Of a stretch of 64,000 bases of DNA, positions 26,058-47,171 are shown in pieces; position 1 is the first letter of the stretch; every line of letters begins with the position of its first letter. A program made the translations under genes and the position numbers. A model generated the notes under the pieces. It worked only from the letters and a program-made list of their open reading frames with translations. It was not told the origin of the DNA and made no database searches. This stretch comes from Candidatus Nomurabacteria bacterium (GTDB lineage Bacteria > Patescibacteriota > Minisyncoccia > Phycocordibacterales > UBA918): the NCBI GenBank assembly GCA_023898565.1, contig CP060228.1, positions 156,170 to 220,169 on the forward strand, given 5' to 3'.

Positions 26058-26065
26058 ACTAACTG

Positions 26066-30202: not shown

Positions 30203-30206
30203 AGTA

Positions 30207-32429
30207 CTAACAACCCTCCTGCGGATCGTTACCGTTCTCAATGTTGCCAATGAAACAGTTGGCAGTGGTCTCGAAATCTGGCAACGCCTCCTTTGCCTCT
30301 TCTAGCACAGTAATTGCCTGCTCCGGCTCACTATTTTGGTAGTAGAGATACGCGAGTGTGGCCCATGTCTGTGGCTCTTCAGCCCACTTCTGTGCACCAT
30401 CTGGCGCAGCCTGGGTGCGATACTCGAAGAGTTTAATTGCAATGTCGTACTGCCCAAACTGATTGGCGGCGCTGATGAGGAAGTCGCTCGCTGCCAAGCG
30501 ACGCATAATTGCGTCATCGGTGATTCGATCATCAGCACTTATCATAAGTAATCGCGCTTCATCTGGCTTTTGCGCATACAAAAGTCCCGCTGCGTAATAC
30601 TCACGTGCCTCAAGATTGCGCACGTCGAGTTCAAAGGCGGTCTTAAAGTATTCGAGCGCCTCGTCATTCTTTCCTTCTGAGAGCGCCACAAAACCTTGCT
30701 GCTCAATAATGGCCTGCTTTAGCGGTGAGTATTCACGCGCGAGTGCCATATGCTCAGCTGCTCTCTCAAGATTACCAATCGCGCGATAGTAACTTCCCAC
30801 AAACACATGCACGCGCGCGTCACCAGGCTTTTCCGACACTAAGCGACTCAGTTGTTCTTCAGTGTAGGACTGATACTCGGCCCGTACCGCTTCAGGAATC
30901 TTTGTGTCACGCACCACACTCATAGTTTGCTGAGCCAATTGTTCAGTAATCTCTTGATGAGCAAATGATTCGCGACCAATCGCCTGCTTAAAGTATCCGA
31001 GTCGCTCAGCCGGATCTGCCGCACGAAAAGCCAAAATAATATCACCTGCCGCATGCATACCCGGCACATGCGCAAAGTAAATCACCGCCACCACAAGCAC
31101 GGCCATGACCGGCGCAGCAAATTGTTCAATGATTGACTTGTCTACCTTCCACTCCGCTACAGCCTTTGGCACGAGTCCAACTCGTGAATTAATCAAACCA
31201 AGAATAATTGCAAAGAAGATGTAGCTGACAATATTGTCAAACACTACGAGATTGTGGGTGAAGTACCCGGCCAAGATACCAAGGAGCACCCCACGCTCCA
31301 TCGCATTAAACGCATGATCCTCCTTGTCGATAAGTGGACGAACAAGCAGGTACCACACGCACCACCCAAAGATGCTGAGATACACCACCAAACCAAGGAT
31401 GCCGCCGGTCACCAGCCAATCCATGAAAATGTTGTGCGATCGATCAAACCACTGCTCTTGACCGTACAGTCGTGGATCATAGTATTTGTTAAAGACGTAA
31501 TTGAAGTTGCTCTGGCCATACCCAAGGACTGGACTTTCTTTCACCCCTTCCCAAGCAGTACCCCAAATGATAGTTCTGATTTCCAAGTCGCCCAGAGAAA
31601 TATTGGCGATACGTGCCAAGTTTGGGCTATTCTGCACAAATGCGGTATCACGAGCCGCAATAAACGTACCAACGCCAAGTAGTAGCACCACAAATGCACC
31701 GATGGCATACTTGCGATACTGCACAAACTGCTTGCCGAAGAGACCAATGTACGCTGCCATCACCATGATGCCAACCGCCAAACCAATTGCCGTACCACGA
31801 GTACCGGTCTCGATGAGCACAAAGGTAAACATGGCAGCCAGCACGCCATAGAGCACTTTATGGAACGTGACACGCGTCTCTACAAAGAGCCAAAACGCTA
31901 CGAAAATATGGAAGAGCATGTACACCGCCATGTATGCGGCATTACCCAAACGGCTATCGATACGACTGCTGCCATCGACAAATCCACCATACTGCGCCAA
32001 GCCATAAAACGCTACTGCAAACGCCACGAAGAGTGAGGTGTTGAGCAGTCGCTGCCAATGCTCTTTCGTTTGCAGCACACTTCCTGCCACCAGCATGTAC
32101 AAGAATGTGTGCACAAGCGATACGTAGCCATCCATACGCTCGAAGTTGCTCCAGAAGCTTACATTGCGATTGAGACCCCACCAGTCGGCCGCAAACATCA
32201 CCACCAAAAGCGCACCAAAGCTCCAGACAATACCCGAAACTTTCGGCCGATACTTTACTTCATACAACGCGAGAATTGCCCACGCCGCGAATGTTACATC
32301 GACAATAATGCGAAACCAAAAATTCTTACCAGTAATGTACGGGAAGAAGTAATCATTCTCCACGTACAAGGTCAAAAACGGCACGGCAAAAATACCTGCG
32401 TAGACCAACCATTTCATTACGTCTTTCAT
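30207..32429 (-). CDS. O-antigen ligase (Wzy_C) family polytopic membrane protein with C-terminal TPR repeats
   Basis: It has about 12 TM helices with a Wzy_C-like core (GTRGTAIGLAVGIMVMAAYIGLFG). The soluble C-terminal portion has TPR-like repeats (LERAAEHMALAREYSP..., EALEYFKTAFELDVRN...). Confidence 0.65.
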   Translation of the reverse strand: MKDVMKWLVYAGIFAVPFLTLYVENDYFFPYITGKNFWFRIIVDVTFAAWAILALYEVKYRPKVSGIVWSFGALLVVMFAADWWGLNRNVSFWSNFERMDGYVSLVHTFLYMLVAGSVLQTKEHWQRLLNTSLFVAFAVAFYGLAQYGGFVDGSSRIDSRLGNAAYMAVYMLFHIFVAFWLFVETRVTFHKVLYGVLAAMFTFVLIETGTRGTAIGLAVGIMVMAAYIGLFGKQFVQYRKYAIGAFVVLLLGVGTFIAARDTAFVQNSPNLARIANISLGDLEIRTIIWGTAWEGVKESPVLGYGQSNFNYVFNKYYDPRLYGQEQWFDRSHNIFMDWLVTGGILGLVVYLSIFGWCVWYLLVRPLIDKEDHAFNAMERGVLLGILAGYFTHNLVVFDNIVSYIFFAIILGLINSRVGLVPKAVAEWKVDKSIIEQFAAPVMAVLVVAVIYFAHVPGMHAAGDIILAFRAADPAERLGYFKQAIGRESFAHQEITEQLAQQTMSVVRDTKIPEAVRAEYQSYTEEQLSRLVSEKPGDARVHVFVGSYYRAIGNLERAAEHMALAREYSPLKQAIIEQQGFVALSEGKNDEALEYFKTAFELDVRNLEAREYYAAGLLYAQKPDEARLLMISADDRITDDAIMRRLAASDFLISAANQFGQYDIAIKLFEYRTQAAPDGAQKWAEEPQTWATLAYLYYQNSEPEQAITVLEEAKEALPDFETTANCFIGNIENGNDPQEGC

Positions 32430-32934
32430 ATGGGTGAAACTATACCACGTACGCCCGATAAGCTCCGACTAGACGAGGCCGAGATTTGGAGGTGTAGGCT
32501 ATACACAGAAAGACTGGTGGGCGCTTCACTACAAGAGTACTTCAATTTTCATAGTCGCTTCGCTTCTTGAAAATTTAGTCGCACGACCCACCGGTTTTAT
32601 CCTCTACCGTTTCTCTCCCTTTCTTTTCCCTTCTTTCTCGCGCAGCTCTTTGTGTCCACTGTCACCATTTCTCAATTGCTCTTGCAAGACATAAACTGCA
32701 GTCACTTTGCACATTTTTACGAGAAACAACACATCAAACTTAAAGAGACATCTTTAAAGGTTCTACTTATGGTTAACAATGTACTTAATTACTAATTAGC
32801 TGCTAATATTAACCTATGAGAAAGATGCAAAATTTTGGTTACACTATTTTGTAACTAATTACAAAGTATAACTGTTAGACACTAGATGTGGTCATACAGA
32901 ATTTGTAACATCGAATTCATTCTTCAGGAAAATT

Positions 32935-34161
32935 ATGATTGAAAAACTCTTAAATTTGATAAGGTCTCATCGGCATCATCTCACAAACGGTGGATTTTTA
33001 GCCTACTCCAATCTAATCACCTCAATCACAAGCTTCGGCATTGTCTATATATTTGCTAATTTTATACCGCAAGAAACTTTCGGTACATATAAATATGTTC
33101 TGTCGATTGCAAGCATTCTGTCCATTTTTACACTTCAAGGAATGAATACTGCGGTCGCGCAGTCAGTGAGTCGCGGCTACGAAAACGCTCTCAAAGAAGG
33201 TATCCGCACCAAAATGTTATTCGGAAGCATTGGAACAGCTATTGGTTTGACTATAAGTGCATACTACTTTCTTCAAGAGAACACCATACTGGGAAGCTCT
33301 TTTTTAGTCACCGCTCTTGCAATACCTTTTTTTGGCACCTTTAACTTATACCGATCATACCTCAACGGGAAGAAAGAATATAAAGCAATCGCTCGCGAAA
33401 CTACATTGTACAATATAGCTTTTTTTCTATTGTTCTCTGCCGTACTGCTCCTAACCAATAACATTGTCGTTATACTACTTGGTTACTTTTTATTTTCCGT
33501 TCTGCTGCAACTATATATCTACCTTAAAATTTCACGAACACTCCGCAACACCCAACAAACAACTGACCCTGAGATTGTCGGGTACGCAAAACACCTATCG
33601 CTACTCAAAGGACTTACCGTTGCCTCTGGCTCCATTGGCACCATAGCTCTTTGGCAAATCCTGGGCCCTCTTGCCCTCCCTGTATACACACTGGCACTCG
33701 CACCGATTGAACAAGTCCGGCCAATGCTTCAGCTAACTGAAAACCTACTCATGCCAAACATGGCTCAAAAAACATGGAGAACCTACTCCATTGGATGGTT
33801 TTTTAAAAAATCTGCAACTTTTCTTCTCATAATCTTGCTTCTTGTGGCCATTTACATTGGCTTAGCGCCACTTATCTATGAGCTATTCTTCCCAAATTAT
33901 GCAGAATCTGTCTTTCTTTCACAGGTGTTTTCAGTAAGCCTTCTGTTCACAGGCATCAACATCATCCTGATGACTATAATGAAATCAAAAAAACAAATCC
34001 GTAATCTCTATCTAAGTAACGGCATTCTTATTTTCTTTGACCTTTTGACGATACCCGCTATCTATTTCTTCGGCATTTTAGGACTTGTAGTTAATGTACT
34101 ACTCGGAAAAGCTTTTCTGACACTCGTTAGTTTATTCTTGATATTCAAACGAACTCGCTAA
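32935..34161 (+). CDS. Wzx-like oligosaccharide flippase (MOP/polysaccharide biosynthesis protein family)
   Basis: At 408 aa it has about 12 TM helices and an N-terminus typical of Polysacc_synt proteins (GFLAYSNLITSITSFGIVYIFANFIPQETFGTYKYVLS). It is the first gene of the AT-rich island. Confidence 0.7.
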   Translation: MIEKLLNLIRSHRHHLTNGGFLAYSNLITSITSFGIVYIFANFIPQETFGTYKYVLSIASILSIFTLQGMNTAVAQSVSRGYENALKEGIRTKMLFGSIGTAIGLTISAYYFLQENTILGSSFLVTALAIPFFGTFNLYRSYLNGKKEYKAIARETTLYNIAFFLLFSAVLLLTNNIVVILLGYFLFSVLLQLYIYLKISRTLRNTQQTTDPEIVGYAKHLSLLKGLTVASGSIGTIALWQILGPLALPVYTLALAPIEQVRPMLQLTENLLMPNMAQKTWRTYSIGWFFKKSATFLLIILLLVAIYIGLAPLIYELFFPNYAESVFLSQVFSVSLLFTGINIILMTIMKSKKQIRNLYLSNGILIFFDLLTIPAIYFFGILGLVVNVLLGKAFLTLVSLFLIFKRTR

Positions 34162-34166
34162 AATTC

Positions 34167-34934
34167 CTATTGCATAGGTTTCGTGGCCACAGAGATTACT
34201 CGACGACCTTTGTTATTTTCACACTTATTAAAATACTTAGGCCAGATACTAAGATTGTAATGACTAGAAAGCTTTTTAAGTGTCCAGATTTTATTGTCAA
34301 TCAACTTATCATAAATCTTAAGTGGATGAAAACCCATTTTGTCCTGCCCCACCACTTCTTTAACATCAAAAAAGGGACTTAGTGTGTCGGTCAGCTTTTG
34401 TGCTGAAAAATGCTGGTAATGCTTCGGTCCAGGAGGCAGCGCATCTGATGGAACAGTTACAATAAACTCACCTCCCGGCTTCAACATCCTGCTCACCTCT
34501 TTTAAGAGAGACGGTATTTCATCAGGGATGATATGTTCTAACGTTTCAATCATGAAAATAACATCAAAATAGTTACTCTCGCACGTAACTTCATTAGCAA
34601 TATTTTTAGATGAAAATGTAACATTAGGCAAAAGTAGTTTTGCAAACGATATTGCCCTCTCTGAATAATCTATACCATAAAGACTGTGTTGATATCGATC
34701 TTCTAATTCTTTTAAGAAACGTGCATCACCACACCCTAAATCAAGAATTTTCAAAGTACGAGATTCTTTCATTAAAGATGACTGTCTTATTGCAAGGTCA
34801 AGATAACCAAAGTACAAGCGACCCGAAGAAGTGGAACTTTTCTTACACCAGTGATATGGATAACTGTACTCATCTTCCTGTATTTGCTGCTCTAATGTTA
34901 AATCTTTTTTTGTCATATTTACGAAGTTTAGCAT
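34167..34934 (-). CDS. Class I SAM-dependent methyltransferase
   Basis: It has motif I ILDLGCGDARFLKEL and post-I motifs (FDVIFMIETLEHI, LKPGG). Confidence 0.7.
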   Translation of the reverse strand: MLNFVNMTKKDLTLEQQIQEDEYSYPYHWCKKSSTSSGRLYFGYLDLAIRQSSLMKESRTLKILDLGCGDARFLKELEDRYQHSLYGIDYSERAISFAKLLLPNVTFSSKNIANEVTCESNYFDVIFMIETLEHIIPDEIPSLLKEVSRMLKPGGEFIVTVPSDALPPGPKHYQHFSAQKLTDTLSPFFDVKEVVGQDKMGFHPLKIYDKLIDNKIWTLKKLSSHYNLSIWPKYFNKCENNKGRRVISVATKPMQ

Positions 34935-34937
34935 AGC

Positions 34938-35864
34938 TTAAACACGCAATGCTTTTTTATCGGCAATAAATCTCATTATTTTTGAAGAAAAAGGAAGTAC
35001 TGAAAAAGCAAAAAACAAAAAATATCTACCTCTCCATGAGTACAGAAACGCCTGCCAGGCGTTCCAAAGAGCCCTTCTTTTATTGCCGCCAAGAAGCAGA
35101 CCAACAGCAGCACCATATGCATGACCCGCATACTTATCGCGTGCATCTGCAACCAGATACAGATACCTATGTTTTAATAGGAAAGCGTCTAGAACGGGAC
35201 CCCTTTCAATTGAGAGCGCAACGTTCATCTTTTTCCTCTGAATTGTAAGCGACATTGAGTCTGACTCTAAAAATACTTCACCACAGGTTTCATTAATGTA
35301 GGCAATGTTGCTTCCAGATTTTTCCAATATTTCAATATAAAACATGAAGTCAATTCCTCTGGAACGAAACCGCACGTCATCTATCAAATTTCTTTTAACT
35401 GCAATAATTTCAGCATCTTGAGGCCTTCGTCCCCCAACCCAATCATATTTTGTTAAAAGACCCGTTTGACAACGCGGGAGCATTTGCGGCTCTCCATCAT
35501 TACGATAGAAAACAGTACTTGCACAAACGACCCCAACCTCAAATTTTTGGAAACCACTTAACAAAACCTCGAGAGCATTAGGCAGTAACAAGTCATCACT
35601 GTCCCATATAATTAAAGCATCTCCAGTCGCATGTTCTATGCCCGTATTCCTAGCAACTGTCGCAGCTCCGTAGTTTCTATTTAATTTGATGTATTTAATG
35701 CGCTGATCTTTAAATCTACCCATCACTTTCTGAGTATCATCCGTAGAACCATCATCTACAACCAGAAGTTCAAATTTTTGATATTTTTGGCTAAGAACAC
35801 TTTCAACACACTTTTGCAAAACCTTAGACCGATTGTAAGTAGCAACAATGATACTAAATTTCAT
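34938..35864 (-). CDS. Family 2 glycosyltransferase
   Basis: FSIIVATYNRSKVLQKCVESVLSQKYQKFELLVVDDGSTDDT is the GT-A N-terminus, and a DxD-like IWDSDD is present. Confidence 0.8.
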   Translation of the reverse strand: MKFSIIVATYNRSKVLQKCVESVLSQKYQKFELLVVDDGSTDDTQKVMGRFKDQRIKYIKLNRNYGAATVARNTGIEHATGDALIIWDSDDLLLPNALEVLLSGFQKFEVGVVCASTVFYRNDGEPQMLPRCQTGLLTKYDWVGGRRPQDAEIIAVKRNLIDDVRFRSRGIDFMFYIEILEKSGSNIAYINETCGEVFLESDSMSLTIQRKKMNVALSIERGPVLDAFLLKHRYLYLVADARDKYAGHAYGAAVGLLLGGNKRRALWNAWQAFLYSWRGRYFLFFAFSVLPFSSKIMRFIADKKALRV

Positions 35865-36595
35865 AAGCCAATATTTTTCCGTACTGATTTTAGTACACTC
35901 AAGAATCTGGTATGTCTCTCATAGAGATACTCGTCAACGATATCGCCACCAAAACCCAACTTAAATCTGTTAATCCCAGATTTTGACTCGTCGGTCATAT
36001 TAATGTATGCCAAATCTACATATTCAAATCCTCTTGCCCCGCCAAAGCAGCAAACTTCGTATATCAGCCTCTTACTTATATAGCCAATATCTTTCTGAGA
36101 AACGTTTTCATCATGCTTTCTTGATGAAAAAATTGAAATGACCTTTAAAACAGGATTAGCATCAATAAGATAAATGCCGGAAACCACCTTCCCGTTACAG
36201 CAACCAAGCGCCCAAATACCGTTTGCATTCCTTCTCTTGAGAGACGGGCGATTGCTTTCTTTTTCAAATACATCATACAAAGAGTAACCTTCCTCAGAAA
36301 AACCCTTAACTAGCTTAAACGAATAATTTTCTTTGTATGTTTTACGAATTTCGTTTCTATAATTCTTTTTAAATGAGAGTAAAATATCCTCGTCCGTCTT
36401 ACTTGTCAAAAAAATTCTTGTTGTTTTTTTAACTCGACTCAGTTTGAAATCGTCCGGCAAATTCATCGGAAGATAGGAATATACCCTCGCAGAGTGAAAT
36501 GAGTATTTTCTTATAACATCTAAAACAACGTTTTCACTTTCGTAATAAATCTCACACACTCTTATTAAATTGTAAACTGTTTTTTTTCTAATCAT
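35861..36595 (-). CDS. Hypothetical protein, possibly a FemAB/GNAT-like (Acetyltransf_6-like) acyltransferase
   Basis: The C-terminal region ...LIYEVCCFGGARGFEYVDLAYI... weakly resembles the BioF2/FemAB-like acetyltransferase fold. The gene is embedded in the glycan cluster. Confidence 0.3.
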   Translation of the reverse strand: MIRKKTVYNLIRVCEIYYESENVVLDVIRKYSFHSARVYSYLPMNLPDDFKLSRVKKTTRIFLTSKTDEDILLSFKKNYRNEIRKTYKENYSFKLVKGFSEEGYSLYDVFEKESNRPSLKRRNANGIWALGCCNGKVVSGIYLIDANPVLKVISIFSSRKHDENVSQKDIGYISKRLIYEVCCFGGARGFEYVDLAYINMTDESKSGINRFKLGFGGDIVDEYLYERHTRFLSVLKSVRKNIGL

Positions 36596-37257
36596 TTCTT
36601 GTTACGACAAACGAAATAGGTCGTCTTACTGAACCACGGGAAGAATCTGTAAATCTTATCTTTCCAATTTAAATTATCTTCTTTTGCCAATGAAATCTTA
36701 TGAATAATTTCTATATCCCTGAAATATTTTTTAAGTTTAAAAAAATCTGACGGGCTTGTTCTGTATGTTTTAAGTTCATGATAATAATCAAATCTACCAG
36801 AAAAAAAACGGTGCAACTTTTTTAAATATAAACGATTATGAGAACTAAAAATAAATACACCGTCTCTTTTTAATACACGCGCAGCTTCTGACACGGCAGA
36901 ATAGATATCTGGTTCAACATAATCAATGCCGTGAAAAGGAAAAAAAATTGTGTCAAACGTATCATCTTCAAATGCTAGTCGACTAGCATCCATCTCAAAT
37001 ACTTTTACTTGATATCCTGCCATTCTTTTTTTTGACTGGTCAACCATTTCAGGAACAATGTCAACTCCTGTAACACAGAATCCTAAATCATGCAGTGGCT
37101 TCAGAGTTCTCCCTCCACCACACCCAAGCACTAACACATTATCTCTTTTAAAGTGTTTCTTTGCTAAAATTTCCTCATCGTGCCCCCAATAATTTACTTC
37201 ACCATATTGACTGGCTTGGTGTGCATATACTTTCTTATTCTGTTCAGATATGCTCAT
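36592..37257 (-). CDS. Class I SAM-dependent methyltransferase
   Basis: Motif I is NVLVLGCGGGRTLKPLHDLGFCVTGVDIVPEMV, and LKRDGVF is also present. Confidence 0.7.
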   Translation of the reverse strand: MSISEQNKKVYAHQASQYGEVNYWGHDEEILAKKHFKRDNVLVLGCGGGRTLKPLHDLGFCVTGVDIVPEMVDQSKKRMAGYQVKVFEMDASRLAFEDDTFDTIFFPFHGIDYVEPDIYSAVSEAARVLKRDGVFIFSSHNRLYLKKLHRFFSGRFDYYHELKTYRTSPSDFFKLKKYFRDIEIIHKISLAKEDNLNWKDKIYRFFPWFSKTTYFVCRNKK

Positions 37258-38018
37258 CTCTTTAGCAAAAATTTAAATTTTTCAAAAGTCGTCCACGAAT
37301 ATACTCCTTTTCTGTTCAAATGTAACATATTCGAATTATCAACAGTAACTCTACCCGGCCTTGTGCCAAAAGCAACATCATAGTATTTCGCAACTTCAGC
37401 CTCTATACGCTCGCTCCTTTTACCTTTCGGGTAGGCAAAATACCTACAGTCTATGTTCAACTTACTATTGAGAGTTTCCCTGCTTTCTTTAAGCTCTAAC
37501 GAAAGAAGATCTAGATTGGTCACGTCTGGTAAAACAAGGTGTGATTTGGTATGTGAGCCAATAGTTACAAGTGGGTGAGCGGCAAGATTTATTAAGTGAG
37601 ACCAGTTCAAGAGAGGCAACGCTCCATCCACATTGTTCATGCTTCGACCCACAAAATCGGTTGGTACAAAAATCGTTGCTGGTATTTCATATTTTTCAAG
37701 CACCGGTAAAGCATTTTCAATAAAATCAGAGTACGCGTCATCAAAAGTTATAGCGACTGTTTTTAGGGGGATTTTTCTCTTTTTTTTCAACATCACAACA
37801 AGTTCCGGCAGTGACACAACATTCCATTTTTTATTCTTAATATACTTAAGTTGTCTTTCAAAGACTTTCTTACTCACAGTGAACGAAAAACCATTATCTC
37901 CAACTGAATGATACGTAAGAACTACAGCTCCAGACTTAGTCGGCAATAGCGCTGCTGCCATAAACCAATAGATTGATTTCCCAATGTTTAGAATCGCCTG
38001 TAAAAGTTTTATATTCAT
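37254..38018 (-). CDS. Polysaccharide deacetylase (NodB homology, CE4)
   Basis: KTVAITFDDAYSDFIENALPVLEKYEIPATIFVPT is the NodB motif 1/2 region, followed by a His-containing motif (GSHTKSH). Confidence 0.75.
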   Translation of the reverse strand: MNIKLLQAILNIGKSIYWFMAAALLPTKSGAVVLTYHSVGDNGFSFTVSKKVFERQLKYIKNKKWNVVSLPELVVMLKKKRKIPLKTVAITFDDAYSDFIENALPVLEKYEIPATIFVPTDFVGRSMNNVDGALPLLNWSHLINLAAHPLVTIGSHTKSHLVLPDVTNLDLLSLELKESRETLNSKLNIDCRYFAYPKGKRSERIEAEVAKYYDVAFGTRPGRVTVDNSNMLHLNRKGVYSWTTFEKFKFLLKR

Positions 38019-38030
38019 AGTAATGACTAA

Positions 38031-39182
38031 TCAAAGTTTTTGCTCAGGAACATTTTTTGACATAAACGAAATTATATTTTCAGCTCTCCTGCTCCATGTA
38101 TATTTGCTGGCCTGCTCTAGTAACTGGTTCGATACACCCGCCCTTTTTGCAATAACTTCACTAGCCACAGAAATAAAATCGCCCACATCATCAGGACTAA
38201 AAAAGTACCCTTCCTCTTTAAGCACTTCTCTAATTGATGGCAAATCAGAGGCGATTACAGGCTTCCCCATTGCCATATATTCAAATAGTTTAATTGGAGA
38301 CATGTAGTATCGATAGTGGTCAGTGTTTGGAAATGGAGCCACAAAAGCATCAGCTACGTTTAAATAACTCGCCATACTATGATGTGGAACTCTCCCGACA
38401 AAAAAGAATTTTTCTTTAACCGAATACATCTCAGCAATTCCCTGATATTCTGCGATATCTGCTTCAGACCCTCCAATCACTAAAAAAACGACCCCTGGAG
38501 GCAATTGTATCGCTGCTTCAATTAATAAACGAATTCCTTTGTCCATACCAAGCGTTTTAAGCATTCCTGCGTAACATATAATGTTTGCATCAATTGGTAT
38601 TCCAATTTTATCTCGTTTGACGGGAATAACATTAGGCGAGAACAGTTTTGGATCAAAACCGTTGGGAGCGGTTAAGACGTCAGAAACTGAAAGTCCAAAT
38701 CGGTTCACAACCTCTCTCTTCTTCCATTCGTTTGTAACTATGACAAGCCCTGCATTTTTAATGGCAGAGGTAAATAACTTCAAGTATCTCTCAGGAAAAT
38801 CATGCATTTCATAGAAGACACTTAAATAACGCCCAAAGAATAGTGCAAAAAAAATATCCCTAGTTACTACTTTCACGCCTTCGTTCTTTTTTTCCTTTCT
38901 AAAGAAGAACCAAAGTAACTGAAATAAAAATGACACTTCCAATAGGTAGTATCCAAACAACGTGTTGGGAAAAATAGTGACAATAGGTAAATAAGTAACT
39001 TTGAAATTTTTACTTACCCCATAAAATTCGAAAACATCCTCATTAAGGCTGTTTTTTCGTCTTGGAACAACCAAGTTAACCAAATGACCTTGTGCAGCAT
39101 AGGCCTCACACATTTTTGAGATTTGTAACCCATGAGCTTTTTCTGTCGGGATTCTTACATTCGCAACATAGTAAATATCCAT
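38031..39182 (-). CDS. Family 4 (GT-B) glycosyltransferase
   Basis: The C-terminal GT-B donor-binding signature is present: ...FVAPF...EYMAMGKPVIASDLPSIREVL. Confidence 0.75.
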   Translation of the reverse strand: MDIYYVANVRIPTEKAHGLQISKMCEAYAAQGHLVNLVVPRRKNSLNEDVFEFYGVSKNFKVTYLPIVTIFPNTLFGYYLLEVSFLFQLLWFFFRKEKKNEGVKVVTRDIFFALFFGRYLSVFYEMHDFPERYLKLFTSAIKNAGLVIVTNEWKKREVVNRFGLSVSDVLTAPNGFDPKLFSPNVIPVKRDKIGIPIDANIICYAGMLKTLGMDKGIRLLIEAAIQLPPGVVFLVIGGSEADIAEYQGIAEMYSVKEKFFFVGRVPHHSMASYLNVADAFVAPFPNTDHYRYYMSPIKLFEYMAMGKPVIASDLPSIREVLKEEGYFFSPDDVGDFISVASEVIAKRAGVSNQLLEQASKYTWSRRAENIISFMSKNVPEQKL

Positions 39183-39195
39183 ACGTAATTTTTAA

Positions 39196-40050
39196 TCACT
39201 CCAGCAGTGAAATTCCATATACACCAGCAACTAGACTCTTATCCTTACCAGTACTGCCTAACAAGTCAAGATTTTTGGCTTCCAGAGATTTTAACACTTC
39301 TAAACCGACCTTATCCTCAGCTACTAAACTATCATACAAGAAACGAAAAGCAGCCATATCCTTTATGAAACAAGCACCCCCTGCTCCACGACCACTCTTA
39401 TGAATCGGACTATTGTAATACGGTGACATCATAACGTCTTCGTCCATCATTTTTCTCACCGCTTCCCAGTCACCACCAGTTTTTTCACCTACCTCAAAAA
39501 GCAAATTAGAAAGAATCACTCTAAAGTAACCCTGTAGATTGTGCGCATATTTAAACAGTTCTGCCTCTTGAGCTAAAACTACGTGATTGTATTTCGACTT
39601 CGGGAACAATGACAACACTCTTTCAGCTGCCCCTTTCTGCTGCTCTGTGCTCAAAGGGTGACCAACTACATTTATAATCGGATTTGCCACATCATACGCA
39701 GCAGTCTTTTCGCACAAAAACTCAGGCGAAAATAGCACCGTAATACCTGGATACTTTTCTTGCAGTTTTTTTGTAGTGCCAGGCAGAATGGTTGATTTAA
39801 TAACGGCCACCGCTCCCTCAGTAACTAGCGCAAGAACTTCTTCGACAATACTATAATCGAAGCCCACAGGAGTGGTTGGTGTGGGGACGGCGATAAAAAC
39901 CACATCACATTCGGAGATCTTTTCCTCATTATGTACATACTCAGACTCTACAGAGTATCGAACCACCTCATAACCACGGTGTTCAAAATTATCAGCAATA
40001 TTTTTCCCGACAAAACCTTGTCCAATGCAACCGATTTTCATATACTTCAT
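39196..40050 (-). CDS. UDP-glucose/GDP-mannose dehydrogenase family protein, short form (C-terminal UDP-binding domain absent)
   Basis: MKIGCIGQGFVGKN is the NAD Rossmann motif, CDVVFIAVPTP is present, and GGACFIKD matches the catalytic GGxCxxKD. Only about 50 aa follow the catalytic Cys, so the usual C-terminal domain of about 100 aa is missing. Confidence 0.5.
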   Translation of the reverse strand: MKYMKIGCIGQGFVGKNIADNFEHRGYEVVRYSVESEYVHNEEKISECDVVFIAVPTPTTPVGFDYSIVEEVLALVTEGAVAVIKSTILPGTTKKLQEKYPGITVLFSPEFLCEKTAAYDVANPIINVVGHPLSTEQQKGAAERVLSLFPKSKYNHVVLAQEAELFKYAHNLQGYFRVILSNLLFEVGEKTGGDWEAVRKMMDEDVMMSPYYNSPIHKSGRGAGGACFIKDMAAFRFLYDSLVAEDKVGLEVLKSLEAKNLDLLGSTGKDKSLVAGVYGISLLE

Positions 40051-40142
40051 ATTAACACTCTAAATTTATTTTTAGTTACAACCAAAAGAATCAGGTGGCT
40101 TTTTAAAAATAAGTCAACAAAAAGCTCTTTAATTTAAACTAA

Positions 40143-40859
40143 TCAAACTTTCCTATATTCACTATTTTCTTTTACAAAGACAATATCAATCATTTTCAGC
40201 ACACCATTTTTATATGAATGTCCACCGAAGAAATCAAATACGACAAACGAGTTTTGTTTCATAAAACTAACGATAGTTGCAAAATCACTCGGGGTTGAAA
40301 CGCTACCTAGTGGATTAATCCAAGACTCCAACAAAACCACATCACACAATGCTAGAGTTTTAGTCGCCCCCCTCAAGACATCCATTTCAGCCCCCTCGAC
40401 ATCAATTTTAAGAAATATATTACCTTTAATATGATATTTTTCGCACAATGAATCGAGTTTCTTAACCTCTTTCTTAATAACACTAGAAGATTCACGATTG
40501 GCATATTTTGATGACAATCGACCGTTTTTATTTTCATAAAAATCAACAGTCCCATCCTCCGCGCCGCAGAAACAATTTTCAACATTAACAGTAGACATAT
40601 ATTGCTTTTCAAGCACATCCAGTGACTCACTATACCGAGAATCTGCCTCTACCAATAAGTAGTTATAATGTTTGAACGGGAAAGCATTGATTAACTCTGG
40701 CGTACCATCAGCAACACCAATGTCAATGACCCAATCTGGTTTTGATATTAACGTACTTAAAAACAAGAGTCCTTCACAATAAGGCTTCGCGGGAGCATGG
40801 TAATTAGTAATCCTTTTACCAAAATATCTGAATACTTTTTTGGTCATTTCTTTAATCAT
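40143..40859 (-). CDS. FkbM-family methyltransferase
   Basis: WVIDIGVADGTPELINAFPFKHYNYLLVEADSRY ... IDVEGAEMDVLRGA is the Methyltransf_21 pattern. Confidence 0.7.
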   Translation of the reverse strand: MIKEMTKKVFRYFGKRITNYHAPAKPYCEGLLFLSTLISKPDWVIDIGVADGTPELINAFPFKHYNYLLVEADSRYSESLDVLEKQYMSTVNVENCFCGAEDGTVDFYENKNGRLSSKYANRESSSVIKKEVKKLDSLCEKYHIKGNIFLKIDVEGAEMDVLRGATKTLALCDVVLLESWINPLGSVSTPSDFATIVSFMKQNSFVVFDFFGGHSYKNGVLKMIDIVFVKENSEYRKV

Positions 40860-40880
40860 ATGTATAACAATATCATTCGC

Positions 40881-41528
40881 TTATTTTGAAATTTTAAATA
40901 AGTAGCCCAATACATATTTATTACGCAAAGGTCTTCTCAACATAAAATACAGCCAATCAAGGCCATAGAATATAATCAAAAATACTGGCCTTAAAAATAG
41001 CGGCAAGCTTAAATTAAACATTTGAAATGAAGCAATGAAAGGACCCTCCTCAATTGGTATAATTTCTGTACACCTTGCTCCAGCACATTCAAATATTTTC
41101 CGCAACGATTCATCTGTATATCTAAAAAAATCAGAATGATCGGGGTGGTACCACATCAAAAACGGAACGAAACCTATAAGTTGTCCGTCATTTTTTGTTA
41201 TTCTAACCACCTCGTTTGCAATATGCTGATAATTAAATATGTGCTCCATTACGTTTAAAAAAAGTACAGTGTCGTACGAATTATCTACAGCAGGAAGAGT
41301 ATCGGTTTCAAAATTTACATTGTTTCCTGATTTTAAATCGAAGGTTTCAAACGTCACTCCTTCTTTCCTAGGAATAAATGAAAGGTATGATGATTTTCGA
41401 CCGCCGCCAATATCAATTGTTTTCCCTTTCAACTCTTCTTTCAAAAGTGCAAAATTAAGGTAAGCACGCGTTACACTTTTCCCACCACTAACTTCCATCA
41501 ATAAAAATTTAAATTTTGATAAATTCAT
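40881..41528 (-). CDS. Class I SAM-dependent methyltransferase
   Basis: KTIDIGGGRKSSYLSFIPRKEGVTFETFD..YDTVLFLNVMEHI is Methyltransf_11-like. Confidence 0.65.
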   Translation of the reverse strand: MNLSKFKFLLMEVSGGKSVTRAYLNFALLKEELKGKTIDIGGGRKSSYLSFIPRKEGVTFETFDLKSGNNVNFETDTLPAVDNSYDTVLFLNVMEHIFNYQHIANEVVRITKNDGQLIGFVPFLMWYHPDHSDFFRYTDESLRKIFECAGARCTEIIPIEEGPFIASFQMFNLSLPLFLRPVFLIIFYGLDWLYFMLRRPLRNKYVLGYLFKISK

Positions 41529-42532
41529 ACTTCAATTAATATTTTAGGTATTAGTTTCTCCAAACTATGAAATTCATTCACAAAGCCGATTTTTTTTTCT
41601 TCGATTGAGTTTCTTTCATCAAGGAATTTTATTATTTCATTAGAAAAATCTTTTTTATTTACAACTTGAGCAGCGCCGAGTTGCAAAGAGTTTGTGCCCT
41701 CAGCCATAGAGACCACAGGCAAGCCACAAGCCATCGCTTCGAGCACCGCCTTATCTAAGCTACCATTTTTTGCCGCCGTAACAAAAACTTTTGCTCTATT
41801 TAAAACGGCAGGCAATGAATTTTGATCGACTTTTCCAAGAAAATGAACTTTGTTCTCTAGTCCCTTTTTCGCAATACAACTTTTTAATCTTTCCAAATAC
41901 CTTTTTTCTGATTCAGTGACAGCCAATCCAACAATCGCCAAAGAAGCACTCGTCTTTTTGTTAACTAAGTTCAACACGTCGACAAGTACCAAAAGATTTT
42001 TAGATTCCGTAATTCTACCAACTGTAATCAGGTCAGTATCCTTTTCAATCTTTTGAGGCTTGAACAAATTAGTATCAATTCCGTGTCCAGTAACTACCAA
42101 TTTGTCACTAATTAGACGAAAACTTTCAACTGAGCCACTATAAATGGTATCTGCTAATTTCTCGGCTAAACGAAGTGAAAGGGGCACACTTCCGTGCATA
42201 TACCAAAAACCAATTCTTTTTCCTAAAATACGCCAAAGTGAGGCCCCTAAAATTACATAAATTTGATTCATGTGTACAAAAACTCGATCGTACTCATGCC
42301 GCAGACTCCAGATATACTTATAGAAACGCCACACATAGGTAAATCTCCCCTTCCCATCCTCTTTACCCAGGGAATGAACTGTGACATTGCTAGGCAAATC
42401 AAAATCACCTTGCCGCAAGCAAATGACATGTAGATGATCACAATGTTTCGCAAACTCTGCAATCCAACGATGGAAAAAGCCAAGCACTGGATGCTGCTTG
42501 TCTACCACCTGTGTAACGATAAGTAACTTCAT
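41525..42532 (-). CDS. Family 4 glycosyltransferase
   Basis: It has a GT-B fold: the N-terminus MKLLIVTQVVDKQHPVLGFFHRWIAEF and the C-terminus EAMACGLPVVSMAEG. It is the last gene of the AT-rich island. Confidence 0.7.
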   Translation of the reverse strand: MKLLIVTQVVDKQHPVLGFFHRWIAEFAKHCDHLHVICLRQGDFDLPSNVTVHSLGKEDGKGRFTYVWRFYKYIWSLRHEYDRVFVHMNQIYVILGASLWRILGKRIGFWYMHGSVPLSLRLAEKLADTIYSGSVESFRLISDKLVVTGHGIDTNLFKPQKIEKDTDLITVGRITESKNLLVLVDVLNLVNKKTSASLAIVGLAVTESEKRYLERLKSCIAKKGLENKVHFLGKVDQNSLPAVLNRAKVFVTAAKNGSLDKAVLEAMACGLPVVSMAEGTNSLQLGAAQVVNKKDFSNEIIKFLDERNSIEEKKIGFVNEFHSLEKLIPKILIEV

Positions 42533-42582
42533 AATCTATACAACTTACCACGACTACATGAAGTAACAATCGTAGCTAAATG

Positions 42583-43467
42583 TTACTTCTTAGCCACTAC
42601 ATCAAAGTGCACCGCACAGTAGTATTTGAGGAACGGTGGGGTGATTTTTTCGAGTAGAAAATTGAGCGGCTTCGCAACCACCACTCGCCAGACTGTGTCT
42701 AAAATATGCGGCAAAAAGATAATCGACTTTGGCAGCACTGCATACCCTACCGGCTTTAACTCCACTTCGGTAAACCCATCTAATAGATGGAGGACCTCAC
42801 GTCGTGTGTAATATCGTACTGGACCATTCTTAAACGGACGGCCGATCAGATTGAGTAGTGCTTGGTACGCAAGTCCTTGTATGCCCATAAGCGTAACCGA
42901 CCGCGGGAAAGATGAATACACCAGTAGCGTTCCGCCTGGTTTCAATACTCGCTTAATCTCACTCATTGCCTGCTCTACCACGCTCTTGTGATTATGAAGA
43001 AACACCGCTGAGACAATTGCTACATCAACACTACCATTCTTCAGCGGAAGCGTGTGGATGTCGGCATTGAGAAACAGCGCCGGCGTTTGCTGTTCTGCTT
43101 CATTGCCGTTATAGCGCTGCTTGAAGAGAGTGAGCATTTCGTACGCACTATCAACACCGATGTAGCCAGCAAGCGGCATATCAGGCAGTACGTACTTAGC
43201 CACGCGACCATAGCCAGTCCCACAATCAAGCAATACTTCATTGCCGGTGAGATGGCTTTTGATGTCGGCAATCTGGGTTTCTGATTTACGCTTCGCCTCG
43301 GTTTCATCCTTGGCAGAAATTACCGCGTGCGTAGGATTTTCGGTAGCAAGCTTGTCCCAAACGGTCTTTTCAGCGATTTCTTTTGCTATTTTGATGCCGT
43401 CTCGCTCAATCGTGGACTGCGGTTTAAGCAGTGTCTCTAATGTCTCTGTGTTCATAGTTCGGCCCAT
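42583..43467 (-). CDS. Class I SAM-dependent methyltransferase
   Basis: Motif I is LLDCGTGYGRVAKYVL, and LKPGGTLLVYSS is present. GC content returns to about 50% here. Confidence 0.65.
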   Translation of the reverse strand: MGRTMNTETLETLLKPQSTIERDGIKIAKEIAEKTVWDKLATENPTHAVISAKDETEAKRKSETQIADIKSHLTGNEVLLDCGTGYGRVAKYVLPDMPLAGYIGVDSAYEMLTLFKQRYNGNEAEQQTPALFLNADIHTLPLKNGSVDVAIVSAVFLHNHKSVVEQAMSEIKRVLKPGGTLLVYSSFPRSVTLMGIQGLAYQALLNLIGRPFKNGPVRYYTRREVLHLLDGFTEVELKPVGYAVLPKSIIFLPHILDTVWRVVVAKPLNFLLEKITPPFLKYYCAVHFDVVAKK

Positions 43468-43506
43468 AATACCACACTCATCTGCTGATACAGCAGCCTA
43501 TTTTAC

Positions 43507-44844
43507 CTACGTATGGTCTGATTCTGATGATTCACCAACGAAAAAAGCTTGTTCGATACTAGTACGGTAGGCCTCCTGATATTCACGCGGGTCGTGATGG
43601 AACTTTTCACGAATCATGTCTTGCGCATTTTCAATAAATTCCTCACGCTGCGGAACACTATTTAAAAGATCATTGACTCGGTCGGTAAAAGCCTGGACGT
43701 CACTCGGCTCACAGAGGTACGCGTCCTCACCATGTTCAAAAATATCAGCGCGCTTTTCGGTGCGTGACATAATCATCGGAATTCCAGCAGCGGCCCCCCG
43801 CAAGACAATTTCCTCACTTTCTGGATCGGTATCGGTCACGATAAGCATGTTGGCTGCCTTTAAATAAGGCAGCGCTTCTTCTGCCTTGGTCTCAAACACT
43901 ACCTGATGTTCAATCTCTAAAATTTTGGCGCGTTTTTCAAACTCCGATCGAGCTGGGCCATCACCAAGCACAATCATGCCCACTCGCGGATTACGTAAAA
44001 CAAACCGTGCTGCATCAAGTGCGCGAAAGAGCGTGCTTTGGTGATCTAAACGGCCGATGTATAGCAAGAAGAAAATGAACGGCTTGTACTTACTCTTAAG
44101 ATCAAGTGAAGACTCCGCGGTGATGAGTGCCTCGTAATTTTGGTACCGTGGCAAAAGTGCAATATCTGAAATAACGTATTTCTTTTGCAACCAAGTCAAC
44201 ATGGTGTCTGTCAGCGTACGCACACTCAGGAAACGCGGCACGGTGAAAATCGGCAAAAACAAACGCCAAAAATTACGGCGACTGCGGCGTAAAAAATCTG
44301 TCGTGCGATAGTCGTCAAGAATATGGAGCTGAGTTGGACGATCGTAGAGCTTAGCTGCCTGAAGCGCCACCACCGCTGACTCAAATGGATCACGAGCGAC
44401 GATTAAATCTGGCCGAAATCCTGAAGCAAACTCTAATTGGCTTTTGAGCATTTCCATACCAGCACGTGGTGTAAGCCACCACTGTGAGGCAGCAGCAGTA
44501 TAAATCCAAACATTTGGCGCCACACGCAAAACCGGATCCTTCGGTGCGATTCCAGTACGCAAAATCAGAATATGCACCTCATCGAACAGGTTACGAATAT
44601 CGATGTAACCATCGAGCGATTGCTGTGTAGGATTCAACAACTCTGTGTTATACGAGATAAAAAGTACGCGAGTAACGTTGCGATTTGATTTGAACTCGAG
44701 CATACGCTTAGAATGCAAAGCTTGCTCAGCGGTCACTCTACGCACAGCACCCTCCGCCGTTCGTTTTTCGTTACGGATGATGTACTGAAGCTCTGATGCT
44801 GCATGATCTGAAGCATCACGCTGTGAAAGATCTCGTCTCGCCAT
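43507..44844 (-). CDS. GT-B glycosyltransferase (GT4-like)
   Basis: The C-terminal half has the GT1/GT4 pattern (…GDGPARSEFEKRAKIL…EALPYLKAANMLIVTDTDPESEEIVLRGAAAGIPMIMS). Confidence 0.6.
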   Translation of the reverse strand: MARRDLSQRDASDHAASELQYIIRNEKRTAEGAVRRVTAEQALHSKRMLEFKSNRNVTRVLFISYNTELLNPTQQSLDGYIDIRNLFDEVHILILRTGIAPKDPVLRVAPNVWIYTAAASQWWLTPRAGMEMLKSQLEFASGFRPDLIVARDPFESAVVALQAAKLYDRPTQLHILDDYRTTDFLRRSRRNFWRLFLPIFTVPRFLSVRTLTDTMLTWLQKKYVISDIALLPRYQNYEALITAESSLDLKSKYKPFIFFLLYIGRLDHQSTLFRALDAARFVLRNPRVGMIVLGDGPARSEFEKRAKILEIEHQVVFETKAEEALPYLKAANMLIVTDTDPESEEIVLRGAAAGIPMIMSRTEKRADIFEHGEDAYLCEPSDVQAFTDRVNDLLNSVPQREEFIENAQDMIREKFHHDPREYQEAYRTSIEQAFFVGESSESDHT

Positions 44845-44863
44845 TACCAGCTAGTATAGCAGG

Positions 44864-46006
44864 CTATCTAGGGACACAAGAAGCGTAAGATTCCACTAAC
44901 TGCGTAATATAGGCTGCCTCATCCAGCGTCGTTTCGAGCGCCAGCTTGTGTCCTCGCACACCTTCAGTTGCTACGAGGCTATGATTTTTAAGATATACTT
45001 CCATTGCTTGTACATAGTGGTCACGGTCACCCACTAAAACCACCTGACCCGTTTCTCCACTCCTTACACACTCGCCGGCACAACCCACATCCGTAGTGAT
45101 AACTGGCATACCAGCTGCAGCTGCTTCAACCAGCACCATACCCCAACCTTCATGATTGGACGTAAGACAAAAGATGTCATGCGTTGCCATAATTGCCGCA
45201 ACGTTTTCAGTCCACGGGATAAACGTGACGCGGCTTTGTAAGCCAAGCGCAGTGATTTGCTTTTCAAGCACCTTCTGTAAAGAACCTCCACCAACAAGCG
45301 TAAGTGACGTATTTGGATATCGCACTGCCACTTGAGCAAACGCATCAATTAAAAACGGAAGATTCTTTTCCGGAGCAAACCGACCAACATATAAAAATGA
45401 GACTCTACCGCCCACTGCGTAATTTCTACTGACACCAACCGCCTTGAAAGCTGTGATATCTGAGAAAATCGGTAAGACGGTGATTTTTTCTTCCGATACA
45501 CCAAGCGATAGAAGTGAGCGCTTAATACGTGATGAAACGACGCGGATGCCGTCCGCGCGACGTACGGCCAAATGGCCGTACGTCGCGCGGACCCGCTGCA
45601 ATAAAGACACTTGATAACTCCGCGGATTAAATACGTCGCCATGAATTTGAATATGGTGGGTAGCGCAGTTGCCAAAGGCAACCGCGCTACCCACCACGCT
45701 CGTCTCAAACGGATCCTGACTCGATACCACCCAGTCACCACCCCGCTGCGCTAAAATCCGTCTACCAATTTTAAATGCTTGCCACATCATTCCTAATCGA
45801 GTACGAGTATTGGTGGCATACAAATGTAAATTACCATCCTGAACATACGCTGGGTATCCATCGTGTTTACGCGTAAATACAATAAGGTGATACTCACCCA
45901 TTGCTTCCGCATACGCCAACATACGCGCGCGCTCACGCGTGCCTGTCTCAAGCGCCCGCTTAGCGTAGCTGATTGCAATCAACCGCAACTTAGATTCGTC
46001 CTTCAT
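44864..46006 (-). CDS. Family 4 glycosyltransferase
   Basis: ...SRVTFIPWTENVAAIMATHDIFCLTSNHEGWGMVLVEAAAAGMPVITTDVGCAGECV is the GT4 EX7E region. Confidence 0.75.
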   Translation of the reverse strand: MKDESKLRLIAISYAKRALETGTRERARMLAYAEAMGEYHLIVFTRKHDGYPAYVQDGNLHLYATNTRTRLGMMWQAFKIGRRILAQRGGDWVVSSQDPFETSVVGSAVAFGNCATHHIQIHGDVFNPRSYQVSLLQRVRATYGHLAVRRADGIRVVSSRIKRSLLSLGVSEEKITVLPIFSDITAFKAVGVSRNYAVGGRVSFLYVGRFAPEKNLPFLIDAFAQVAVRYPNTSLTLVGGGSLQKVLEKQITALGLQSRVTFIPWTENVAAIMATHDIFCLTSNHEGWGMVLVEAAAAGMPVITTDVGCAGECVRSGETGQVVLVGDRDHYVQAMEVYLKNHSLVATEGVRGHKLALETTLDEAAYITQLVESYASCVPR

Positions 46007-47132: not shown

Positions 47133-47171
47133 ACCAATATCAGTCTCTTGGCAGAAGTAGACAGACTGCTT

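Follow-up and report, generated by a model that had tools for sequence, protein, structure and literature searches.

We examined a stretch of 64,000 nucleotides from the genome of Candidatus Nomurabacteria bacterium (contig CP060228.1 of GenBank assembly GCA_023898565.1, positions 156,170 to 220,169 of the forward strand), hereafter the window, which carries 49 genes and, in its middle part, an AT-rich island of about 10 kb (32,470-42,560) coding for a Wzx-like flippase, glycosyltransferases, methyltransferases and further predicted sugar-modifying enzymes. An earlier reading of this DNA from its letters alone, here called the original prediction, had taken the island for a horizontally acquired, Wzx-dependent pathway for a heavily methylated glycan. 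We checked the gene-family assignments with Pfam and NCBIfam and compared the window with contigs and loci of relatives (labeled L004-L178). The host is, to judge by its protein sequences, a Paceibacteria-type Patescibacterium: the relatives of its SecA protein are all from metagenome-assembled genomes of Patescibacteria/Paceibacteria (with Kaiser-, Nomura-, Parcu- and Paceibacteria labels), at a best identity of 82%. The island and the genes that frame it are listed below by position in the window, strand and product (SAM, S-adenosylmethionine; TPR, tetratricopeptide repeat; O-OTase, O-oligosaccharyltransferase; aaPGS, aminoacyl-phosphatidylglycerol synthase; GT2, GT4 and CE4 are families of glycosyltransferases and carbohydrate esterases):

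30207..32429, minus strand: left flank, Wzy_C membrane protein (O-antigen ligase/polymerase/O-OTase type) with a C-terminal TPR region (Wzy_C-TPR), 740 residues; Pfam PF04932 and TPR families
32430..32934, no strand: divergent intergenic region of 505 bp between the Wzy_C-TPR and Wzx-like genes; left boundary, with the change point at ~32,660
32935..34161, plus strand: Wzx-like flippase of the MOP family, 408 residues; Pfam PF01943, 55.4 bits (cutoff 28.2)
34167..34934, minus strand: class-I SAM methyltransferase MTa, 255 residues; Pfam Methyltransf_25/11, e-value ~1e-19
34938..35864, minus strand: GT2 glycosyltransferase, 308 residues, conserved core; Pfam PF00535, e-value 2e-36
35861..36595, minus strand: Fem/aaPGS-like protein (Fem-like), 244 residues, conserved core; no Pfam family above threshold
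36592..37257, minus strand: class-I SAM methyltransferase MTb, 221 residues, conserved core; Pfam Methyltransf_25, e-value 6e-20
37254..38018, minus strand: CE4 polysaccharide deacetylase, 254 residues, conserved core; Pfam PF01522, e-value 9e-21
38031..39182, minus strand: GT4 glycosyltransferase GT4a, 383 residues; Pfam Glyco_trans_1_4 and Glycos_transf_1
39196..40050, minus strand: short UDP-glucose/GDP-mannose-dehydrogenase-like (UGD-like) protein, 284 residues; only Pfam PF03721 and PF00984, both above cutoffs
40143..40859, minus strand: FkbM-family methyltransferase, 238 residues, variable distal region of the cassette; matches to Pfam PF05050 and TIGR01444 exceed the cutoffs
40881..41528, minus strand: small class-I methyltransferase-like protein MTc, 215 residues; weak match to Pfam Methyltransf_23, 29.6 bits (cutoff 27)
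41525..42532, minus strand: GT4 glycosyltransferase GT4b, 335 residues; Pfam Glycos_transf_1, e-value 1e-23; GC 0.380
42583..43467, minus strand: class-I methyltransferase MTd, 294 residues, part of the backbone and not of the island; Pfam Methyltransf_11, GC 0.482
43,507-44,844, 44,864-46,006 and 45,990-47,132, minus strand: three GT4 glycosyltransferases (Pfam) of a glycan backbone with host-like GC
47,172-48,194, minus strand: CofD/YvcK-like gene of the same backbone (Pfam)

The guanine-plus-cytosine (GC) content of the whole window is 46.5%, with the island at 0.373 against 0.483 elsewhere, which places it 9.3 standard deviations under 338 host windows of 10 kb (range 0.457-0.495). A two-change-point likelihood search, unrestricted in position over the whole window, returned 32,601-42,600 as the best segment, and upon refinement the change points fell at 32,661 and 42,600 (log-likelihood gain 215), within 200 bp on the left and 40 bp on the right of the coordinates proposed earlier. 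The 11 island genes, spanning 32,935-42,532, have a GC of 0.333-0.419, and of 0.27-0.41 at third codon positions (GC3), with no overlap with the other 38 genes of the window (0.436-0.539; Mann-Whitney p = 3e-7); first and second codon positions (GC1 and GC2) are lowered as is GC3. Measures normalized for base composition set the island apart as well: its Karlin delta* is 96 as against 16-60 for host segments, and its tetranucleotide correlation 0.53 as against 0.87-0.96. The abrupt GC drop of the original prediction is therefore real, with GC, change points, Karlin delta* and tetranucleotides all in agreement. The recovery that it described also occurs, but around the start of the GT4b gene (5' end, ~42,500-42,600) and not after 41,525, because this GT4 gene (41,525-42,532) is itself of low GC. 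The right boundary is accordingly the 50-bp gap between GT4b and MTd (42,583-43,467). A scan for promoters and terminators over 32,000-43,700 gave site counts equal to the shuffled expectation and was uninformative.

The cluster combines a Wzx with several glycosyltransferases (GT2 and two GT4) and sugar-modifying enzymes (CE4, four methyltransferases and the UGD-like protein) in an operon-like array, the presence of the flippase, GT2, GT4 and CE4 having been foreseen correctly. Ten co-directional genes on the minus strand are tightly packed, with gaps of -4 to 92 bp, the transcriptionally first gene of the low-GC block being GT4b with the right boundary just upstream of it, and the Wzx-like gene lies convergent to them on the plus strand. 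The consecutive genes CE4, MTb, Fem-like and GT2, which form the conserved core of the cassette, overlap by 4 bp each in the window, MTb doing so with its neighbors at both its start and its stop. A crude hydropathy scan, which we used for all counts of transmembrane segments, gives the flippase about nine segments or more and makes it the sole polytopic membrane protein of the island, with no strong segment in the CE4 protein. Catalytic motifs are intact, e.g. DSD at residue 88 of GT2, the metal/catalytic TFDD and HTKSH motifs of CE4 and motif I (DIGGG) of MTc, and no gene appears pseudogenized.

Five methyltransferases had been counted in the island, four of class I and one of the FkbM family. 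The FkbM enzyme and the richness in methyltransferases bear scrutiny, but the island has four such genes in all (MTa, MTb, MTc and FkbM), as the fourth class-I gene is MTd, which lies beyond the island end at host-like GC. Substrates were sought through NCBIfam and Protein Data Bank (PDB) matches, which proved generic and far under the family cutoffs; hence none is assigned for the class-I enzymes. MTb has, besides its Pfam family, a weak match to NodS with an e-value of 9e-5.

To place this organization in context we compared the junction across relatives. The Wzy_C-TPR protein, which is of host composition and has about 10 transmembrane segments, has counterparts of 42-76% identity in over 80 Paceibacteria loci, where its gene is always followed by MurB and SecA, whatever cassette adjoins it and even where the junction is empty. 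On the other side the backbone genes (43507..48194, GC 0.47-0.52) are co-directional with the island; their orthologues adjoin Wzy_C-TPR in L104, L108, L110, L113, L119/L120 and L169, and orthologues of MTd are present in L095 (74%), L097 (71%) and L169 (54%). Five or more further Paceibacteria genomes have an orthologous cassette, likewise of low GC, at this locus, with protein identities of 50-70% compared to 67-80% for the flanks. In L091/L092, whose flanks are 80% (SecA), 76% (Wzy_C-TPR) and 67% (MurB) identical to those of the window, the same cassette genes stand in the same order beside Wzy_C-TPR at 50-69% identity (GT4b at just 37%), with a GC of 0.35-0.39 in the cassette and 0.49 in the flanks. 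L089/L093, L095 and L096 also hold the orthologous cassette, which in L089/L093 is of low GC too, and the right flank of L095 is that of the window (the backbone GT4c being 71% identical, besides MTd).

The individual genes differ in how widely they are retained. The CE4-MTb-Fem-like-GT2 core is found in six cassettes (window, L089/L093, L091/L092, L095, L096), the orthologues of CE4 being 47-53%, those of MTb 63-67% and those of GT2 59-62% identical. Orthologues of Wzx are 59-63% identical in L089, L092, L093 and L095 and 82% in L177; those of MTa are 68-81% identical in L089, L093, L096 and L177 and lacking in L092 and L095; and those of MTc are 56-58% identical in L091, L092 and L093. GT4a is 56% identical in L089, L092 and L093, with a GT4 of merely 30-33% identity in its stead in L095, L096 and L177, and the homologues of GT4b are 34-48% identical, some of them with host-like GC (0.465 in L097, 0.455 in L095). 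The FkbM gene has no orthologue in the L089-L095 cassettes; apart from a 169-residue fragment from the same strain its best homologues are 58% identical, one of them in a cassette of a different type (L178) at the same hot spot.

Other relatives carry something else at this junction. L097/L047, 74.7% identical to the window over SecA, MurB and Wzy_C-TPR combined, have a different cassette of low GC (0.29-0.40) in the order GT4c, MTd, GT4b-like, two FkbM, GT4, Wzx, a gene without assignment and a methyltransferase, and their Wzx is only 24% identical to that of the window. Further cassette types stand in L161 and L178. In L169 and L110 the junction is empty at a uniform GC of ~0.5, with MTd and GT4c respectively 114 bp and 234 bp away from Wzy_C-TPR, and L169 has a small lower-GC cassette of GT2, Wzx and FkbM across CofD, on its far side. 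L177 is a mosaic, with Wzx, MTa and UGD-like proteins 82%, 81% and 86% identical to those of the window, a GT4 and a GT2 of only 33-34% identity, and neither Fem-like protein nor MTb; between L089 and L093 the distal block is replaced. Across 33 non-redundant loci the Wzx gene beside Wzy_C-TPR is on average 4.2 GC points under its flanks (p = 1e-5), and its GC tracks that of the host with a slope of 0.86 (r = 0.58). Cassette regions of the window, L089, L092, L093, L095, L096, L097 and L178 have ~3-7 methyltransferase genes each, and since this richness is common to the cassettes at the locus, methylated sugars are plausible lineage-wide.

Several of these cassettes show features of their own. 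L178 codes over 1-12,445 for two sugar C-methyltransferase-type proteins (Methyltransf_13/14), several epimerases and a bifunctional ATP-sulfurylase/APS-kinase, which hints from gene content at a sulfated, C-methylated glycan. The flanks of L091 and L092 are 100% identical, and the L091 cassette has deletions of 725 bp and 276 bp and a 1-bp indel (at about 7,975 and 11,475) that break GT4a, the end of GT2/Wzx and MTb, suggesting either population-level inactivation of the glycan cassette or long-read assembly errors. The sample of L177 (SRR12358676) is the run adjacent to the one that holds the window strain, which suggests that such co-occurring relatives recombine their cassettes. In L089 (13,921-19,462) and L093 (13,928-18,325) the Wzx and Wzy_C-TPR genes are separated by an inserted block of ~6 kb, which codes for a methyltransferase and a protein of 629-633 residues without family and also holds a RhuM/Fic gene and small open reading frames (ORFs). 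Genes of the Fic or RhuM type recur beside the cassettes of L091, L095, L096 and L104.

We consider it probable that in this Paceibacteria-class Patescibacterium the island is one version (allele) of an exchangeable surface-glycan cassette, of the type of O-antigen loci or 'glycotypes'. The junction is fixed, with a backbone of host composition (CofD, three GT4, MTd) on one side and Wzy_C-TPR, MurB and SecA on the other, and relatives either share the cassette, have another Wzx cassette of low GC in its place or leave the junction empty; the cassettes are mosaics of core and variable accessory genes. Horizontal exchange is part of the history of this locus, in the form of old, within-lineage cassette replacement and mosaic recombination. 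The three flank proteins taken together are 77.8% identical between L092 and L097, 76.3% between the window and L092 and 74.7% between the window and L097; because L092 and L097 are the closest pair but L092 has its cassette type in common with the window, a replacement or an independent gain must have happened at least once, albeit with small margins. Low GC is a property of the cassette type that persists across species whose flank proteins are ~24% different. Cassette diversity and the persistence of low GC find their best explanation in two causes together. Cassettes of this kind would recombine through their conserved flanks and so circulate in the lineage over the long term, under selection exerted by phages or by host recognition; in addition, this type of locus would have an AT bias of its own, as in other bacteria.

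Three points tell against this view. Within the species no alternative cassette was seen: all same-species contigs carry an identical island, so that the evidence for replacement is confined to comparisons between species or genera. Relationships among the flanks were judged from three proteins, with differences of 1-3 points. Moreover, the slope of 0.86 between the GC of Wzx and that of the host fits long residence and evolution in situ at least as well as repeated exchange.

This last point leads to the strongest competitor as to origin, namely a vertically inherited locus that was never transferred and whose GC was lowered in place by relaxed selection, low expression or AT-biased mutation. 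The occurrence of the cassette at the same site in sister species, the constant negative offset with which Wzx follows its host, the shift of GC1 and GC2 besides GC3, and the UGD-like gene, which has both the highest conservation and the highest GC of the cassette, are all in its favor. However, equally close relatives have non-homologous cassettes at the junction, elsewhere the junction is empty, and L177 is mosaic; nor does conservation predict GC, as MTa is 68-71% identical at a GC of 0.363, MurB 67% at 0.481 and the backbone gene GT4d 52% at 0.489. Relaxed constraint as the sole cause of low GC is rejected on the latter ground, and we hold the explanation without transfer to be unlikely.

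The original prediction had favored horizontal acquisition from a donor clade to be identified by homology search. In so far as this is an accessory locus with a history of gene-cluster replacement the idea survives, but a recent import from a distant low-GC clade, with the break as an un-ameliorated signature, is very improbable. It would account for the sharp break in GC, dinucleotide and tetranucleotide composition and for the empty junctions of some relatives. Nevertheless, it is largely refuted by the orthologous low-GC cassette, in the same gene order and at 50-70% identity, that sister species have at the same place. At such protein identities synonymous sites are expected to be saturated, and a one-off foreign import should therefore have been ameliorated by now. 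Searches with three island proteins among 5.8 billion proteins recovered same-strain copies (99-100%) and otherwise nothing above 86%, the contexts recovered being Paceibacteria-type cassettes of this kind or this very locus, and neither the Fem-like alignment nor Wzx had a relative in the viral contigs that were scanned with them; thus, within these searches, no donor outside Paceibacteria is detectable. The best matches lie in the same lineage, yet the codon usage of the island is not identical to that of the host. There is no tRNA or tmRNA and no match to an Rfam family in the window, no integrase or transposase domain (Pfam) among its genes and no direct or inverted repeat across the two borders.

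That the island is an assembly or binning chimera with a low-GC fragment of another organism can be dismissed: an independent contig (L081) ends inside the island and NCBI labels of window-identical proteins conflict, but assemblies from several other samples reproduce 25,861-40,950 at 99.8-100%, L081 crosses the left border into SecA, and relatives show the same adjacency at the left (L092) and right (L095) borders. Because the independent assemblies reproduce this region the island is not an assembly artifact, and eight same-species contigs from different samples carry it at 99.8% identity or more. As for the labels, the proteins identical to the Fem-like and UGD-like proteins of the window are attributed to a 'Chlamydiia bacterium' in one case and to 'Candidatus Nomurabacteria bacterium' in the other; the former is probably a binning or taxonomy-label error.

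Turning to the enzymes, the dehydrogenase-like protein had been described as truncated. It has the N-terminal and central domains without the C-terminal nucleotide-sugar-binding domain (PF03720), UDP-glucose dehydrogenases (UGDHs) in PDB aligning with it only to about residue 311/444, but it is intact: the NAD-binding GxGxxG motif (GQGFVG) and the catalytic-cysteine motif GGACFIKD are preserved. Its best 120 homologues are all 268-325 residues long and all lack PF03720, so that it belongs to a distinct short family, which is neither canonical nor made of pseudogenes. A truncated-pseudogene reading was likewise rejected in view of the abundant full-length homologues of 275-300 residues with 60-86% identity and of the intact motifs. 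No other gene of the cassette is as conserved (69-71% identity in relatives, 86% in L177), and in sister cassettes an epimerase/dehydratase gene, and sometimes an AsnB-type amidotransferase gene, lies beside the dehydrogenase-like gene. More broadly, short UGDH-like proteins of ~275-300 residues, with the catalytic cysteine and no C-terminal domain (homologues labeled P0079-P0198), form a large Paceibacteria family, whose genes are often directly upstream of an epimerase/dehydratase gene.

The Fem-like protein had been called FemAB/GNAT-like, which holds at the level of the fold, while the sequence matches stay under curated family thresholds: the Pfam FemAB model (PF02388) scores 14.3 bits (cutoff 24) with weak matches in 4 of 11 family members, and none of the NCBIfam Fem models match. 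Just 12 homologues were found among the 5.8 billion proteins, all in Paceibacteria cassettes like this one and none above 57% identity outside the same strain. An AlphaFold2 model built from the homologue alignment (pLDDT 83) retrieved, in a Foldseek search of PDB, the aminoacyl-tRNA-dependent peptide synthases Sba18/Sbb17 as best matches (E 3e-12, TMq 0.66-0.67), whose structures were solved with the amino-sugar compound streptothrisamine. These were followed by MprF/aaPGS synthase domains, L-PGS and FemX (overall E 3e-12 to 1e-7, TMq 0.54-0.67). A phmmer comparison with 9wqw gave an e-value of 2e-6 over a common motif (F/Y)KLGFGG(D/E), and this C-terminal (F/Y)KLGFGG motif is shared by the Fem-like protein and Sbb17. 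The model thus leads us to predict that it is an aminoacyl-tRNA-dependent (or acyl) transferase.

Among the FemABX, aaPGS and Sba18-Sbb17-Orf11 proteins, the relative Orf11 of the BD-12 pathway glycylates streptothrisamine with Gly-tRNA (review, PMC12945691), and glycylation of an amino sugar resembles what the adjoining CE4 deacetylase would set up. The island protein resembles this group in fold, and Sbb17 also in the common motif; it differs in being shorter (244 residues compared to about 290-335) and in standing in a glycan cassette, the pathways of the former being those of peptidoglycan, lipids or antibiotics.

These assignments suggest an outline of the pathway. The ten cytoplasmic enzymes (GT4, MTc, FkbM, UGD-like, GT4, CE4, MTb, Fem-like, GT2 and MTa) would assemble and tailor a lipid-linked oligosaccharide. 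CE4 would remove the N-acetyl group of an N-acetyl-hexosamine, the Fem-like enzyme may then attach an aminoacyl or acyl group to the freed amine, which would also be methylated, and the remaining methyltransferases (FkbM, MTa, MTc) could add further methyl groups, O-methylating other positions, with the short UGDH-like enzyme presumably supplying an oxidized sugar. The convergent Wzx-like flippase would export the unit, and the cassette-independent Wzy_C-TPR protein would transfer or polymerize it onto a cell-surface acceptor. The overlapping genes of the core and its conservation in six cassettes suggest the steps of de-N-acetylation, N-aminoacylation or N-acylation and methylation. Wzx dependence, as originally predicted, is supported and a heavily methylated glycan is plausible from the gene complement, whereas polymerization by a Wzy is not established. 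No second polytopic membrane protein that might be a cluster-specific Wzy is present in the island, the sole Wzy_C being the conserved flank gene of host-like GC.

On the functional side, too, there are points that weaken the reading as a surface-glycan cassette. No initiating phosphoglycosyltransferase of the WbaP, WecA or PglC type and no chain-length regulator is found among the 49 genes of the window, though they could be elsewhere in the genome; with these and a cassette-specific Wzy lacking from the 64 kb the pathway class is incomplete. All enzyme substrates are inferred from family or fold only, and in the case of the Fem-like model likeness of fold cannot separate aminoacyl-tRNA donors from acyl-CoA donors.

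The product might also be a short oligosaccharide and not a polymer, which the Wzy_C-TPR protein, as an O-OTase of the PglL/PilO type or a ligase of the WaaL type, would transfer en bloc to a lipid or to surface proteins such as pilin or those of the S-layer. The Wzy_C domain (PF04932) occurs in both ligases and O-OTases. Since the Wzy_C-TPR protein, of host composition, accompanies every cassette and the empty junctions alike, it cannot be specific to one repeat unit; given this independence from the cassette and the lack of a cassette-specific Wzy, its likelier role is that of a ligase or oligosaccharyltransferase tolerant of different glycans, rather than that of a polymerase bound to a particular repeat unit. 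The single polytopic protein of the island and the missing chain-length regulator point in the same direction. Against this, no acceptor is identified, the TPR domain is not diagnostic, and a polymerase could sit elsewhere in the genome. We regard en-bloc transfer as possible but less likely than not.

A more specific proposal, which we make tentatively and with some doubt, is that within a swappable surface-identity cassette of the candidate phyla radiation (CPR) the CE4/methyltransferase/Fem-like/GT2 core installs an aminoacyl-tRNA-dependent N-aminoacyl group, along with N-methyl, on a de-N-acetylated amino sugar of the exported glycan, and that the short dehydrogenases supply an unusual oxidized sugar. 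We know of no experimentally demonstrated tRNA-dependent glycan decoration of this kind, although we made no systematic search.

A comparable logic is seen in the tailoring of Nod factors by NodC (GT2), NodB (CE4), NodS (N-methyltransferase) and NodA (N-acyltransferase), in which an N-acetylhexosamine is deacetylated and its free amine then N-methylated and N-acylated. By analogy, the translationally coupled core of the island could represent the same logical set of GT2, CE4, methyltransferase and N-acyl-type transferase. The two differ in that scores for NodC and NodS are far under cutoffs, a NodA homologue is absent, and the product of the island is exported by a Wzx-type flippase. An FkbM methyltransferase inside a variable surface-polysaccharide locus is likewise known from Vibrio cholerae (RfbT); the FkbM genes of sister cassettes match the RfbT model, whereas that of the window matches generic FkbM models only.

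As a locus, the island most resembles the O-antigen clusters of enterobacteria (rfb, e.g. the galactose-initiated set of Salmonella). Low GC is a long-known general trait of wzx and glycosyltransferase genes in variable polysaccharide loci, which in Salmonella have 28-37% GC in a genome of 51-52% (PMC3715488); the corresponding values here are 33-42% and 48%. In both cases conserved genes frame a fixed site at which related strains or species have other versions, the clusters are mosaics of segments with different histories, and mobility genes are not required. The present locus is unlike them in that its host is a monoderm-type Patescibacterium with a genome of ~1 Mb and no lipopolysaccharide, in that the cassette has no wzy, wzz or initiating transferase, Wzy_C being a conserved flank gene fused to TPR, and in that the variation is between species and not, as yet, between strains.

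A second parallel is with the replacement flexible genomic islands, or glycotypes, of e.g. Alteromonas, which are exchanged through conserved flanks (PMC4898812). In these too, wholly different clusters of equivalent function are found at a fixed location, exchange is inferred to proceed via the conserved neighbors, and a role in surface identity or as phage receptors has been proposed. Theirs, however, are defined within species, between clonal frames, whereas the same-species contigs here share one cassette, and the only within-population variants are the deletions that distinguish L091 from L092. A literature search found no earlier description of such islands in Patescibacteria, which is not proof of absence.

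Patescibacteria/CPR are mostly uncultured, many are attached to host cells, and their surface chemistry is little known. Here a genome of ~1 Mb still gives roughly 20 kb to a glycan system organized like an O-antigen locus, with a conserved backbone and a swappable low-GC cassette, and many alternative cassettes across the class carry genes for methylation, sulfation, amidation and possibly aminoacylation. The locus provides a concrete marker for typing 'glycotypes' in CPR populations, and its variants are candidate determinants of phage or host specificity. Genome scans should take warning from it as well: where GC breaks sharply in a polysaccharide locus, the break alone is no evidence of recent foreign origin. 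What we describe is a well-documented case of a phenomenon already known, in a phylum that has received little study; the leads that it offers are the core with the Fem-like and CE4 proteins and the family of short dehydrogenases.

Further features of the window lie outside the glycan cassette. To its right, beyond the CofD/YvcK-like gene, there are another GT4 and an epimerase gene. To its left two very large genes (11633-21054) code for a 1,070-residue protein without Pfam match and a 2,064-residue protein with a NosD/beta-helix region, both probably surface proteins; the gene of the latter holds a local GC dip (0.413 at 18,001-19,000). Downstream of the glycan region, at 52614-56066, a protein with Lamin-tail and PKD domains is encoded beside a homologue of TrwB-like type-IV coupling proteins, and this pair may belong to a pilus or to a DNA-uptake or secretion apparatus. 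Finally, two overlapping plus-strand ORFs of 178 and 438 codons without Pfam match (48257-49883) interrupt the near-uniform minus-strand array.

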